A stretch of 64,000 nucleotides of DNA. Origin: Massalongia carnosa (Eukaryota). Location of the stretch: assembly GCA_965645245.1 (NCBI GenBank), contig OZ287076.1, forward strand, positions 1-64,000. The letters run 5' to 3'. The translations under genes and the position numbers were made by a program. This document shows, in pieces, positions 16,232-61,738 of this stretch. Under the pieces are notes generated by a model that ran no database searches, was not told the DNA's origin, and was given only the letters and a program-made list of their open reading frames with translations. Within the stretch, counting starts at the first letter, position 1. Every line of letters starts with the position of its first letter.

Positions 16232-18735
16232 TTTCCGCACCGAGTCCTTAATAGGTATATGCCTATTTGTTCCTTATGTTCGTCTTGTCTATCTAGTATA
16301 GTCATAGCTAGCAATGCCACCACCTTCACCACCTGAATAGGCCCCCCCGTTGCCGCCTCGTCACAGAAGACACTACTCATAGATAATTCTAAAAATTGAT
16401 ACTCGTTAAATGCAGAGCGCCATCCAGCTAACGTCAAGACACATGACTCCTCACCCCCACTAGACACGACACGATTCTGTAGTGACCGTAGGTGTTGCAC
16501 TCAACGTTTGTGCACTTGAGATTCTCCTAATCGTTCTTCAGAGCATCTGTAACGCACAGGGCTGGGCTTTGAGTGCCTTCGCCTTGAGAGGTATTCCCGT
16601 CGTCAGTAAGCAACTCGGGCGATTGATATTCTTCGGTATGTGAAAACGCGCTCTGAAGCTCTATCATTAATTTCCGAACGCGATGGCCGTACTTGTCTCA
16701 TCCTGCGCTAGCAAAACTGACGTGATCGGCAATGCAAACTTCTCTAGAACATCGGAAATAGTGAATAGCGCTTTTTCATGATTCAGTTCAGCTTTTCAGT
16801 AAATATCTAAGCCTTCGTTCGATTTTCAGAGGGGTTCGATATTAAGGACAGAAGCCGAAAGCTGAAATATCTTCTGACCCTTCGAGACATCAGGTAGCAC
16901 GGATACTAGATAAATCTTAGCACTCAGCTTTATCTCTTAGGGTGATTCATGTAACATAAGTAAGTCGGCGCTAATTCGGAAGTACTATGTAGGCTGATAC
17001 TAACATTTGTACCAGTGTCAAAACGCTAATCAAAGAAACTAAGATTTGAGCGTGGCAAATTTCTTGTGCGAGGTACACTTTCCGTATTTCGCATTTCGCA
17101 CCAGAATTCGGTAAGTTTCAAAACGCTTAACGCCATCCCTTGTAGGAGCTGCGTGGCTTGTTTCTCTCCCTCTCTTCACTCTGCCTTGTCTCTTCTTCTC
17201 TCATCCTCTCTCATTCTCTCTCGTCTTATCCTCCCACCCCCTAAAAATATCAACTCTCCCACGCCGTCGTATCCTAACTTCTCAACGTAGTCAACAGGCA
17301 CTAAGATGCAACCATGATTCTTGTCCAAATCCAGAACCTAATCTTTATTTTGTTTCGTTGAGCTCGCTCTTGGGTTTGAAAAGTATCAAAGCTGAGAACT
17401 GTGCTCGAAATGGTTGATATGATATGCGGTGGTCGAGAAGTGGATCATGATGACTGCAGACCGACTGCGGGCCGATTGAGCTGATTGCAAAGCGAATGAG
17501 AGGTACCGATATCTTTATTCTGAGTAGCAGGTATTCGTAGTCCTTCACTTGTTCGACATCCTGTTGACTGATATGTTGTCGCAGGTGAATCGATATCATA
17601 ACATGGCTCAGGAATGACAAACCATGTGGCTGCTGCGAATGTAGCTGGGGCCGGACGGAGCAGATAAAACGGACGGAGCAGATGACGCAGACTGAACAAT
17701 TGAAATCGCAGGAGAGATAGGTGAGCTAGGCTGAGCAGCCTATGAGAGAGCGTGTGAGGGCGAATGATACGAATTCATAAGATGACTAGAAAGGTGCAGT
17801 TGCTGCGAATGAGATAGCTGAAGTTTCTAGTATGTTCACGATAAGACAAACTCTACTAACGTTAGTATGAAAAGATTTATACACAAGGTATCTTTATGTG
17901 ATCTTTCTTTCATGAGAAAGCTATGTGTGTAGGGCAGTATTGAATGTGATGCAGAAAGTAGTGCAACCTGCTTGTTAGCTTGGTAGGCGTTGAAGCCAGG
18001 CAGAAAGGCGTAAAGAGCGACGAAGTTCTTCCTCTCCCATATCGGGACCTGCTTAACTTTTCCAGCTCCTGATTCAGGAGCTGAAAAGCACTCGTCATAC
18101 ATAGCTGATCAACAGGAGAAACAGGACTATCAACGACAGAGTCTAGACCCTTCGCTCATCTTCTGAAATAGCGGCCTTCTCTTTCCATGTTTCAATCAGA
18201 TGTGAAGCTCGTCGACTGACGATCAAGAAGGAATTCGTGTCATGCATAATATGAACCTCAACGACAAATAATTGTTCAGTTGAATTGTCGAAATGAAAGA
18301 TAGCTTTTCTTCACATCGAACTCTCTGACGTGATATGATCAAGGTCAAATGCGCATTTGCGTCTAATATTGAAATCGATTGTCTTTCAATCTGAAGTCTT
18401 GTTGTCTTGCTTCATCTCAGAGCCGCATTCGTTGCGTATAACTGAATATGGACTGTTTTCCATCTCTCTCTTCATGTCATTGGCCTGAGCCGGTCACAAG
18501 GCTTGTCATCTGTTTGAAGGGCGATAGAAATTTTCTGTTGTACCAGCATCAATAAGTGTCAGAAGTTCAGCCATCACGGTACGAGCAAATGAGACAGATT
18601 AAGCATAATTGAAGTTTTCTAACAGGATCTCTAGATACTCTGTCGCTTCTCAAGACGACGTATCATTGTGAAGGAGATCGTCACCGAAACCCGATAAACA
18701 ATGAAGAAGCTTCTCTCAACTGGGCCATTGCAATT

Positions 18736-21700
18736 TTACCCACCAGACAACATTTTTGCAACCTTGTCATGACCATTTTTCTTGGCCACCGACAGCGGAG
18801 TGTTTCCATCTATATCTTCGAGAGTACGATCTGCCCCTGCTGTAGGCAATAGTCTCACGATATTTTCGTTACCTTCTGCTGCTGCCAAAAAGATAGGAGG
18901 CCACCCATATATACTCTTCGCATTGACGTCGACAATTTTTGTACGAAGTAGTAGTTGAACTACTCTTAGGTGGCCATTTGCTGCGGAAATCCAAAGTGGA
19001 GACACATGCCGAGAATTTTTTAGATCAGGTTTGACCCCTTCTGCTAGTAGTTTCTGGATTGTATCCGCCTTTCCAAATTTTGCTGCGTTATAAAATTGGG
19101 CGATCGACTATTCTTCTTTAGAAGGGGAGATCTTAAACTTTTCTTTGATTATTTTTAAGACCCCATCTTGCCCGCACGTCGCAGCTACCTTCACCACCTC
19201 TTCTGTAATCATCACATCTGCCCCGCGCTGCTCAAGCAATAGCGTCATCACCTCTTTTCCACTTCCTTCATTCCCTGCCGCTGCCTTCACCACCTCTTCC
19301 GTAATTATCACATCTGCCCCGCGCTGCTCAAGCAAGAGCGTCATCACCCCTTTCCCATTCCTGGAAATTCCCGCCGCTGCCTTCACCACCTCTTCCGTAA
19401 TCATCACATCTACCCCGCGCTGCTCAAGCAAGAGCGTCATCACCTCTTTCCCATTCCTGGAATTTCCCGCCGCTGCCTTCACCACCTCTTCCGTAATCAT
19501 CACACCTGCCCCGCGCTGCTCAAGCAAGAGTGTCATCACCTCTTTCCCATTCCTGAAATTTCCCGCCGCTTCCTTCACCACCTCTTCCGTAATCATCACA
19601 TCTGCCCCGCGCTGCTCAAGCAAGAGCGTCATCACCTCTTTCCCATTCCTGGAATTTCCCGCCGCTGCCTTCACCACCTCTTCCGTAATCATCACATCTG
19701 CCCCGCGCTGCTCAAGCAAGAGCGTCATCACCTCTTTCCCATTCCCGGAATTTCCCGCCGCTGCCTTCACCACCTCTTCTGATATTATCGTAAGCTTATT
19801 TTTCAGCAAGATCGAAACTACATCACAACTACCATATTTAACAGCGATTTCGAAAGATGTCCGACTCTGAGTGTTCACTATGTTGTCTCCGAAATTTGCC
19901 CGGATTCTAGCAATTTCCTGCAAATCAAAACAGGAGGCAACAAAGAGAGCTCTGCCCTCTTTAGCGCTAGTGTCTTTAAATTTATCCCATAGTTCCATTT
20001 CAATCGAATAATCGTAAAGCCGTTCCTTAAGCAGGCTAGCCCATACAGAAATAGCGGATCCTGAGTCCGATTCGTTGGAGAGAAAATGACAAAGGAGGTG
20101 GTTAAGCACATAGGCAGTCCTTTGTTTAGCAGCTAGCTGACAATGCTGAGCCCAGTAGACATTTGAGTAGTGTCTAAGGTCATGTGAAAGAGTTGAGTTT
20201 AATGAATCTTGTCCGTATTTAGAAAGAAGTCTTTTTGTTGTTGGGTTGTCGGCAGAACTTAGTACGTCTAAGAGACATGTCTCAGCAGCCAGGGCGTTTG
20301 TCGCTTCTCTAGTATATTCTGGCCGCTTCTCCAAAAATTCTCTCACCGACAGATGGGCAAATCGAAACGTATCGAGTGTTGAATCGAAAACAACCATATT
20401 AGAGCACATCTCCAAAATATGCTCTTTCGTCAGCTGGCGGAACTGTCGCCGCGGGGTCGTTGACATTGCAGCGAGAAATTCTCTAGATGTCAGCTTTCTC
20501 TGGGCGCAGAGGAGCCAGCTGAAAGCGTTGATAGTCACTTCGCGATCGGAGTTTCCTGAGGTTTTGGTCAACTTCTCGTATAGCTCAAGATAAAGGTCTT
20601 CCAGATTTGGTGGCAGTTGCCCGAGCCTTTCCCGAATAGCTTCATCAGTCCGAGCGCTGCATAAGCTTTGCAGTTGGAGGCTAGCCCACCGGAACCTGGT
20701 GATCACATTAGTGGGGCATAAATATGGCTCGCATTGCTGGACAGTACTGACATCCCATCAGCGTTTTTTGTGACCTGTTCAATAATCTCGATCTTCAACT
20801 TCTCCTTGTTGGTGCTTAGAGCTAGGAGCCTCTTCCTCTTGATAAGGTTGTCGGTCTCAGCGGTAATAAACGACGAGATATCATCCTTGTTCATTTCAGA
20901 TGAGAGCTCAAGATTAGGGTAGCTACAAAACAATATCTTGATCATCTCGACTCGAAACAAAGATCTTCACCATGCTTGAGGACTCTTGAAGAATTGATTC
21001 TAAGGTTTCCAAGGGAACTGTCCGTCTCTCTGGGTCGCACTCGTCAAGCGCATCGATCACAATGGTTGTTAATGGATAATACTCGGCAAGCTGGTGGATT
21101 AGTAGACGACTCTCACCTATACCTAATGATTCCGAGGCGAATCCCTCCATCTCTCGTTTCTTGTAGGCTGCCACCGTTGGAGGGAGTAGAGGGTGTCCCG
21201 GTTGAAGACTAGGCAATTGCCGTGCGATAGTCGCTACGATTGCATCAGGGTTTGAACGCGCCGGTTCAGCGGTGTTTCGTGAACAGTAGAAAAAGACTGG
21301 AGCTGGGCTTTGGCCATTATCGAAGGCTTTTTTGGCATCTTCAATCACAATAGATCTATGTTAACCGTAAGCATTTATCTTTCCGAGATAGCTGTACAGT
21401 ACTCACACCAGCTTGCTCTTCCCAGAACCTGTAATCCAATGTAGCCACAAGATAGAAGATACACTTTCTTTCTTCCACCTTTTGAAAACTGGATCCGAAA
21501 GCAGCCATTGTCCAGTACCCTGTAACACTTCTTCCTTGGTCTGATTATGATGTTGCCTATATGGTTCGGAGTACAACCAGTGTAGAATCTTATTTCTCTT
21601 TGATACTAAGGCTCATGAGTTGAGGCTCTGATGTTGATTTTAACAACTTACACTCAAAATCATCTTTAATGTTTACTAAATCCGCACTCATTCGTTTTAT

Positions 21701-61562: not shown

Positions 61563-61738
61563 ACAAATAGGCATACACCTATTAAGGACTCGGTGCGGAA
61601 AATATGCGAAACAGTGCAAAGGGTTCAGGTTGACTACGAAATATCAAACAATCATCAACGAATCAACAACCCCCGGCTAATGGATAGAAGTGCGTTCAAA
61701 GACCTTATAGGTTTAATAACTCATCATGCTATTGACCT
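61563..61738 (+). mobile_element. Short MULE-2-family transposase fragment
   Basis: Near-identical to ~31005-31130 (NHQRINNPRLMDRSAFKDLIGLITHHAI) but retains the 52 bp deleted there. Confidence 0.85.

Follow-up and report, generated by a model that had tools for sequence, protein, structure and literature searches.

The locus analyzed here raises the question of how two inverted copies of an NLR gene came to flank 31 kb of mostly transposon-derived sequence near a chromosome end, and whether the whole behaves as a single unit. The window, meaning the entire stretch of DNA analyzed, comprises 64,000 nt of Massalongia carnosa (assembly GCA_965645245.1, contig OZ287076.1, positions 1–64,000, forward strand) and begins with a telomere array at 1–167. 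The left arm, an NLR-bearing segment of 7262 bp on the minus strand (16232..23493), lies 16 kb from this telomere, and its inverted copy, the right arm, covers 7059 bp on the plus strand (54543..61601); both were delimited by self-BLAST and global alignment. The initial annotation had described the arms as reverse complements, with identity in the mid-90s percent and with NLR genes pointing outward. Self-BLAST bears this out, matching 16232–22924 with 61601–54911 (96.4% over 6705 columns) and 23138–23493 with 54912–54543 (94.1%), and the gene models run outward from 22635 to 18736 on the minus strand and from 55200 to 59104 on the plus strand. Arm divergence, a check that the annotation had proposed, amounts to 233 substitutions in 7021 aligned bases of the global alignment (3.3%). 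What separates the two matched pieces of the left arm in the alignment is a solo LTR, roughly 210 bp long (22925..23131; TG..CA, with GGCAA on both sides), which is present in the left arm only; joints bypassing it occur in every one of the 4 runs examined. Segmental duplications are sequences longer than 1 kb and more than 90% identical that are not themselves transposons, a description that fits the arms, at 7 kb and 96.7% identity and consisting mainly of a host gene and its flanks; a dispersed one would in addition have copies at unlinked sites of its own genome.

Transposon junctions lie where the arms now end. A pogo/Fot1-type DDE_1 transposase fragment on the minus strand (15925..16231; PF03184, E 1.4e-07) abuts the left arm at its outer end, and an internal fragment of a MULE-2-family transposase on the plus strand (61563..61738) straddles the corresponding end of the right arm. 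Beyond the right arm the MULE-2-family sequence continues to 61738, and beside the left arm the DDE_1 fragment cuts it off. The earlier claim that both arms end distally in MULE-2-family sequence is correct as to its presence, but the sequence measures only about 40 bp per arm, comes from the transposase interior and includes no terminus. When the compared ends were allowed to shift by as many as 5 bases, no target-site duplication was found at the arm outer ends, a single shifted 5-mer match aside. Target-site duplications of MULE and Foldback elements measure 8–11 bp; here the arms begin inside transposase coding sequence and have no outer target-site duplication. A MULE-associated rearrangement, one of the origins first proposed, is unsupported because a MULE terminus and a target-site duplication are missing at both arm ends.

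The core (23494–54542; 31,049 bp) consists largely of nested, broken elements and is about 89% transposon-derived by our segment calls, which agrees with the first description of a spacer made largely of nested transposons with two MULE transposases, both of which are broken. About 3.4 kb is without transposon assignment. Mostly single-copy sequence with no element assigned (23494..26309) adjoins the left arm, as it does in other samples; an ORF at 23932–24369 had no Atlas match. It is followed on the plus strand by the broken MULE-1 (26317..29698; left edge approximate), with an inverted-repeat match between 26368–26418 and 29648–29698 and a shortened right terminus, and by the broken, 5′-truncated MULE-2 (29699..32045). 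A copia-like fragment on the plus strand (32046..45550) is split by another copia element at 33257/45257; this second element, on the minus strand (33258..45256; LTRs differing at 4/339 positions, target-site duplication TGAAG), encloses a gypsy element with a chromodomain, also on the minus strand (34547..41125; LTRs differing at 5/448, target-site duplication CGTGT). Two plus-strand remnants called by eye from motif resemblance, neither with a Pfam match, come next: one that we take to be pogo-like (45551..46790) and the right end of a presumably piggyBac-like element (47291..48434). A LINE on the minus strand encoding endonuclease, RT and RNase H (48442..54544) has a (GATT)n tail and is flanked on each side by GGATAAGG; the right arm's inner border is set by the LINE 5′ end, with a LINE/piggyBac-like junction there. 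An Rfam search gave no match. A stretch at 23510–23523 resembling the MULE-1 terminus, picked by eye, is equalled by 1.9% of random windows and was dropped.

The right arm carries an intact NLR gene (55200..59104, plus strand) of 8 exons and 7 GT–AG introns, which encodes 1180 aa with no internal stops; 903 of the 1180 residues are identical to Halenospora varia P0001. The protein comprises a NACHT_N/DUF7708-like N-terminus, whose Pfam matches do not reach the cut-off in the exons of the window but are clear in the homolog P0001, followed by NACHT (NPHP3_N) with the P-loop GIPGSGKS, a winged helix, six DUF7104 repeats and an ankyrin C-terminus. Fungal NACHT-type NLRs are defined by an N-terminal domain, NACHT with a P-loop and C-terminal repeats, and all three are present. 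The left copy (18736..22635, minus strand) is a pseudogene with a frameshifting 8-bp deletion near 20924, a stop at codon 1057 and the P-loop substitutions G314W and P316T. Between the arms pN/pS is 0.78, and in phylogeny the NLR is nested among Leotiomycete proteins. The global alignment contains 123 transitions and 110 transversions, with counts of 37 for CpA, 31 for CpC, 31 for CpT and 23 for CpG; with no CpA excess, there is no RIP signature between the arms, in which TpA/ApT is 0.57–0.95. Nor was a long conversion tract found between them: the longest identical run is 225 bp, against a chance 95th percentile of 245, although 250-bp bins are overdispersed (p = 0.004).

The segment also occurs elsewhere. 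Ten distinct last-exon sequences, 90–99% identical, many near-identical and often cut-down, lie on ENA megabase contigs of six sizes; the count is one of sequences across contigs, and the comparison covers their last-exon residues. They differ from the right copy at 3–22 of 304 residues (partial P0257, 16/196). The right copy differs from P0357 at 3/304 and from P0238 at 5/304 residues, and from the left copy at 12/304, the distance of the left copy being chiefly private change (10 residues). The last repeat type (EGS) and A1120 are common to the left copy, P0243 and P0257 and absent from the right copy; both arms have six repeats, and their first unit is identical. Forcing the arms to be sisters among the last-exon copies gave a log-likelihood difference of 0.001, and because this is so small, a p-AU of 0.002 against arm sisterhood was discarded. 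Other lichen-associated samples have roughly 3–4-fold depth over the arm: in X3, X4 and X5, arm contigs are 2.6–4.7 times as deep as those of the unique core (longest single contigs), a contig depth that is not a copy number. Depth drops and contigs fork at 23448–23456 in X3 and X4; X3 record 13 spans 23456–23693, bridging the left inner junction into single-copy core, and X4 record 21 is further evidence for this core sequence in other samples. The arms thus resemble scattered members of one family of near-identical NLR segments more than parts of one giant mobile element.

Where depth declines from multi-copy toward single copy, the segment has its inner end, marked by a hairpin and a short inverted-repeat cluster (23421..23508; folding z = −3.2, equalled by 1 of 200 shuffles). 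The hairpin itself (23448–23469) is followed by ATTTT at 23477–23481. These features bear on whether the NLR segment is the cargo of a mobile carrier, either a non-autonomous Helitron2- or hAT-like element or a degraded Starship, with the arms as trimmed insertions, a reading that we consider unlikely. Such a carrier would suit the many near-identical, often truncated copies, their near-neutral divergence, the depth drop and contig branching at the hairpin in X3 and X4, and the nesting of the NLR among Leotiomycete proteins. The hairpin with ATTTT resembles the 3′ end of Fusarium Helitron2 as given in the available text of PMC5148889, but the bases past ATTTT are common to both arms. A Helitron2-like carrier would have an asymmetric inverted repeat at its other end; the match between outer and inner ends is equalled by 8–29% of random windows, although the true outer end may lie elsewhere. 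Neither a second terminus nor a target-site duplication was found, and a metagenome scan for the inner-end motif returned 24 unrelated matches, none aligning to the window outside the motif. There is no Rep/Helicase motif, a loose tyrosine-recombinase pattern was uninformative, and the 41 + 18 ORFs scanned gave no match to hAT, DUF3435, DUF3723, patatin or ferric reductase. Starships are recognized by a DUF3435 captain at the 5′ end or by at least three conserved auxiliary genes, and the ORFs scanned within the window include neither; a hAT-type carrier would have paired short TIRs and an 8-bp target-site duplication, a combination that was not found, and for the candidate hAT-type terminus at 23494–23507 the window offers no partner when 2 mismatches are allowed.

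A local inverted duplication, made close to the telomere by fold-back or by a break-induced template switch, with a spacer of about 3 kb that was later inflated, seems quite improbable. The nearby telomere and the dated nested insertions with target-site duplications that fill the core support that part of the initial annotation which saw an insertion-inflated duplication near a chromosome end, whereas the single fold-back event that it also proposed loses ground, since further copies of the segment exist elsewhere and two of those, on other contigs, are closer to the right copy than the left copy is. The unassigned 3.4 kb of core, the six repeats and the full 7 kb common to both arms, the arm sisterhood that is not rejected, and yeast fold-back loops that may span thousands of bases in the accessible part of PMC7467729 all fit a local event. 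The family is dispersed, though, the EGS repeat and A1120 ally the left copy with P0243 and P0257, and the 31-kb spacer retains no palindromic junction (an older one may be destroyed), its right border being a transposon junction. An assembly artefact that misjoined two haplotypes or paralogous loci, the refutation envisaged at the outset, is very unlikely. Alleles in other samples are up to 2.0% (X4) and 4.4% (X5) distant, so that 3.3% arm divergence alone is no proof of paralogy, and the left inner junction is the sole one checked in independent data; there, however, the X3 contig crosses into single-copy core, and the same 8 bases on both sides of the LINE tie the right arm to the core, in addition to the multi-copy state of the segment in other samples. 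Finally, the symmetry, the core's pair of MULE genes and the outer-end sequence of the MULE-2 family could suggest a single transposon of 45 kb whose terminal inverted repeats are 7 kb long, mobilised by the core MULE transposases. This is extremely unlikely and already largely refuted: a target-site duplication is missing, the outer ends lie within transposase coding sequence that extends beyond the right arm, MULE-1 is bounded by short inverted repeats of its own, neither transposase is intact, and the match of the X4 core contig stops at 26309, immediately ahead of MULE-1. The 45 kb neither moves nor acts as a single unit; recombination between the arms could in principle invert the core.

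The origin that we find probable is an ectopic segmental duplication in a transposon-rich subtelomere, an event of a known kind, after which further insertions trimmed the ends. A stretch measuring 7 kb or more would have been copied between transposon-rich sites through ectopic recombination or break repair and would have landed in opposite orientation, at most 31 kb from its sister copy. Without RIP, both arm copies could have survived, and insertions of copia, gypsy, LINE and MULE elements, together with deletions, would then have widened the spacer and trimmed the arm ends. The multi-copy segment, the decayed left copy and the arm ends at transposon junctions favor ectopic duplication. Weighing against it, multi-copy depth stops near one hairpin-bearing site, which is simpler under a mobile carrier, and arm sisterhood costs no likelihood while both arms have six repeats, which leaves room for an origin as a local pair.

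Duplications are concentrated at the ends of fungal chromosomes (PMC8381367, available text), and the locus resembles the Pyricularia subterminal duplications described there, in which segments near chromosome ends are mixed with transposons and ascribed to break repair; unlike them, it has NLR cargo, and the window showed neither a relic resembling MoTeR nor an interstitial telomere array. Inverted copies near a chromosome end are shared with fold-back inversions and inverted triplications (yeast, PMC7467729; Aspergillus flavus, 10.1101/2025.01.14.632981), which in the accessible portions of these accounts have a hairpin or palindrome junction and a single source locus, in contrast to the 31-kb spacer, transposon-junction borders and multi-copy segment found here. 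Near-identical host-gene copies and an end hairpin recall hAT transduplication (PMC3538342), Helitron-like amplification (10.1101/2025.11.13.688278) and Fusarium Helitron2 (PMC5148889), as far as the available sections describe them; unlike those elements, no terminus pair, transposase or empty site is demonstrated here. An NLR amid nested transposons in a lichen-associated fungus, with an NLR gene tree that may conflict with the host, is likewise a trait of NLR-carrying Starships (PMC9156397; lichen Tangerine, PMC13486527; available parts), but the window contains no captain, other Starship gene or element boundaries.

In each arm the NLR has six near-identical 32-residue DUF7104 repeats, encoded by 96-bp tandem arrays of 6.2 units (left gene, 19180..19779, minus strand; right gene, 58061..58660, plus strand). 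NLRs with high internal conservation (HIC) have repeats more than 85% identical to each other, a level that these arrays reach, with units within one array differing at a mean of 5.9/96 bases. Repeat number ranges from 1 to 16 units across the ten copies, the polymorphism typical of HIC NLRs, and their hypervariable positions have a counterpart at unit positions 12 and 13, where variation amounts to 1.99 and 1.91 bits, compared with 0.65 or less at all other positions, among 60 full-length units whose search pattern itself fixed some positions. The arrays may have been altered via unit gain, loss and shuffling. HIC NLRs control cell death or non-self recognition, and by analogy with other fungal NLRs the intact copy would probably serve as a sensor of non-self, with its specificity in two variable loop residues per repeat. 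HIC NACHT-ANK NLRs (Dyrka et al. 2014, PMC4986451; PMC13449251), in the text available, similarly combine NACHT with near-identical C-terminal repeats, and further likenesses are repeat-number polymorphism, few hypervariable positions, pseudogenes, transposon association and relocation, HIC NLRs being TE-associated and sometimes translocated (PMC13449251). Unlike the Podospora HIC NLRs in the accessible part of that survey, which reports no highly similar intact duplicates and blames RIP, many paralogs here are 90–99% identical and un-RIPped, and their repeats are 32-aa DUF7104 units. The same text anticipated repeat exchange between paralogs and did not observe any. Our literature search met neither the name DUF7104 nor a description of this locus or NLR family, which supplementary gene tables could hold.

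Structurally the locus is unremarkable, since gene duplicates among nested transposons are common fare for a fungal subtelomere. It is of value because it points to an NLR family with many near-identical un-RIPped copies, 1–16 repeats and two adjacent variable residues, which could test fungal NLR spread and the exchange of ankyrin-like repeat units between paralogs, the latter a question obscured by RIP in Podospora (PMC13449251, available text). In a more ambitious and rather unlikely scenario, a RIP-deficient lichen-associated fungus would have acquired the NLR from a Leotiomycete lineage, a hairpin-ended carrier would have spread it to several sites in each genome, and the copies would swap 32-residue units in which two adjacent loop residues form the recognition code, with broken copies, the left arm among them, storing units, while recombination within the inverted pair could turn the core around. 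If true, this would provide a natural system to show exchange of ankyrin-like repeats between paralogs. In fold searches, which were uninformative, the whole exon matched ankyrins with low TM-scores, and a single-sequence model of the repeats matched generic helical solenoids only (best Z 8.7, rmsd 7.1, 224 residues).

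The inverted arms reported by the initial annotation are real: self-BLAST recovered them at the same positions, 16232-23493 (-) and 54543-61601 (+), with 96.4% identity between 16232-22924 and 61601-54911 and 94.1% between 23138-23493 and 54912-54543. Arm divergence, whose calculation that annotation had proposed, amounts to 233 substitutions over 7021 aligned bases (3.3%) and is even along the arms (distal flank 3.5%, gene 3.4%, upstream region 2.4%). Between the arms, no CpA excess of the kind left by the mutational process RIP was observed (123 transitions vs 110 transversions), and no long conversion tract was detected. 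The window as a whole carries many transposons without RIP signatures, unlike the lichen Xanthoria described in PMC13486527.

The right arm contains an intact gene (55200-59104, +) of eight exons and 1180 codons. Its product consists of a NACHT_N/DUF7708-like N-terminus, NACHT, a winged helix, a set of six DUF7104 repeats, and ankyrins, and has the same residue as a Halenospora varia homolog (P0001) at 903 of 1180 aligned positions. The left copy (18736-22635, -), an NLR pseudogene, keeps every splice site but has lost 8 bp, reads a stop at codon 1057 and carries two substitutions in the P-loop; a solo LTR absent from the right arm lies upstream of it. Polarization by an outgroup assigned 41 changes to the left copy and 27 to the right, with 20 unclear. 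Because pN/pS between the arm genes is 0.78, little purifying selection appears to have acted on either copy since the split.

Sequence from 19800-26500 is partly present in six of eight listed sequencing runs from three studies, two labelled lichen metagenome. Contigs of four runs (X1, X3, X4 and X5) were compared with 19800-31300, 32 of over 12,000 pieces being among the contigs listed. Joints omitting the solo LTR occur in all four runs, the eight bases missing from the left copy are present in X1 and X4, and the right arm carries the runs' allele at 10 of 13 arm positions outside the LTR (among 40 of 419 rows listed). The depth ratio of the longest arm contigs to the unique-core contigs listed, which does not equate to copy number, is 2.8-4.7 in X3, 2.6-4.0 in X4 and 2.8-4.5 in X5; X1, with one arm contig among those listed, was left out.

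Among the best 120 of 171 matches, the last exon of the right gene has eight at 93-100% identity, two being the window's own, and a cluster look-up added two further family sequences. The ten family sequences are found on ENA contigs measuring 1.63, 2.02, 2.10, 2.26, 3.63 and 3.77 Mb, from one assembly or several, with at least two on three of these six sizes. Two copies each occur on the 2.10-Mb contig (homologs P0357 and P0358) and the 3.63-Mb contig (P0240 and P0257), where more inverted pairs are possible.

The simplest reading, and the probable one, is a dispersed family of segmental duplications carrying an NLR, with two members in inverted orientation within a transposon-rich subtelomere. 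Spread of the segment by a mobile carrier is distinctly less likely: it would account for the shared inner end, but no pair of termini was detected. The arm ends are not element ends: the outer ones lie within 176 bp of MULE-2-family coding sequence, which extends beyond the right arm and is interrupted at the left by a DDE_1 fragment, and no target-site duplication flanks them. The earlier statement that both arms end distally in MULE-2-family sequence is correct as to its presence there, but this is coding interior and not an element end; a single 45-kb transposon is the least credible reading. At the right inner end, a LINE is flanked on both sides by GGATAAGG and its tail adjoins a piggyBac-like end, indicating that this border reflects later insertions and not a duplication breakpoint. 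The left inner end bears a hairpin cluster.

A local fold-back origin of the pair is rather improbable. Over 304 residues, P0357, P0238, P0358 and the left copy differ from the right copy by 3, 5, 9 and 12 residues, respectively; these five sequences form an open fork, and constraining the arms as sisters carries zero likelihood cost. An assembly misjoin is very unlikely: one X3 contig (23456-23693) bridges the left inner junction. In X3 and X4, branching of contigs is seen at 23448-23456. Across the unique core the samples differ from the window by 0.8% (X1), 1.2% (X3), 2.0% (X4) and 4.4% (X5), so the divergence between the arms cannot by itself distinguish paralogs from alleles.

By our own segment calls, ~89% of the core (23494-54542) is transposon-derived, comprising a broken MULE with its right terminus cut, a second, 5'-truncated MULE, the LINE, and a copia fragment housing a second copia (target-site duplication TGAAG), inside which lies a gypsy element (CGTGT). 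Core remnants assigned by eye as pogo-like and piggyBac-like, on the basis of their motifs, had no Pfam match. The paired LTRs of the inner copia and gypsy differ by ~1%, so both insertions would postdate the divergence of the arms, assuming similar rates. The ~2.9 kb adjoining the left arm is mostly single-copy and includes a 146-codon frame (23929-24369, -) without Pfam or Atlas match and a 13-bp minisatellite (25264-25396). A short TG..CA stretch at 23796-23883, over which depth is slightly elevated in the runs, is perhaps a small solo LTR.

Within the 32-residue DUF7104 units (window 58061-58660 plus P0238, P0240-P0243, P0257, P0357 and P0358), variation is almost confined to adjacent positions 12 and 13, which, in a predicted model (mean pLDDT 87.5), lie in the loop joining each unit's two helices. 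Repeat number ranges from 1 to 16 among copies, several of which stop early. Ten residues are private to the left copy. Its last repeat type and A1120 also occur in P0243 and P0257, a pattern that may stem from units being exchanged or from ancestral units having been lost. Copies from separate lineages also contain a shorter unit type, TIARMFG with its variants. In P0240, 16 repeats are accompanied by an unrelated C-terminus instead of ankyrins, which suggests a fusion or rearrangement.

Hypervariable sites and polymorphic repeats (PMC4986451), as well as a link to transposons and translocation (PMC13449251), have been described for fungal NLRs with high internal conservation of C-terminal repeats (HIC), and subterminal duplications are likewise on record (PMC8381367); by comparison, the number of near-identical copies untouched by RIP stands out here. 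A literature search excluding supplements found no published account of this locus, nor of DUF7104. In yeast, repeats separated by 30 kb can interact once DNA has been resected to single strands (PMC10164571), and by analogy the inverted pair could be unstable.

In a tree of 41 hand-picked rows from homolog searches, the NLR copies fall within a supported clade (96/92) whose every named member is presumably a Leotiomycete. Horizontal acquisition of the NLR is only a lead; such transfer possibly underlies this nesting against an apparently lichen-associated host, or else the host may be a Leotiomycete that lives in lichens. A fungal-type protein kinase (PF17667; 12240-14841, +), disrupted by a frameshift and stops, has its best named matches in the lichen fungi Psora, Sarcosagium and Lichina, and a diverged fragment of it is repeated at 15018-15105.

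The window starts with a telomere array (1-167; 27.8 copies of CCCTAA) directly adjoining a truncated copia RT/RNase H frame (182-1500), a join that looks like a healed break within a retrotransposon. The first 11 kb (182-11450) is occupied by another two copia elements, both broken and oppositely oriented. At the other end, a DEAD/DEAH helicase fragment (62610-62984, +; weak Pfam match, E 0.001), which we assume to be RecQ-like, precedes a gypsy-like gag-protease frame starting at 62936.
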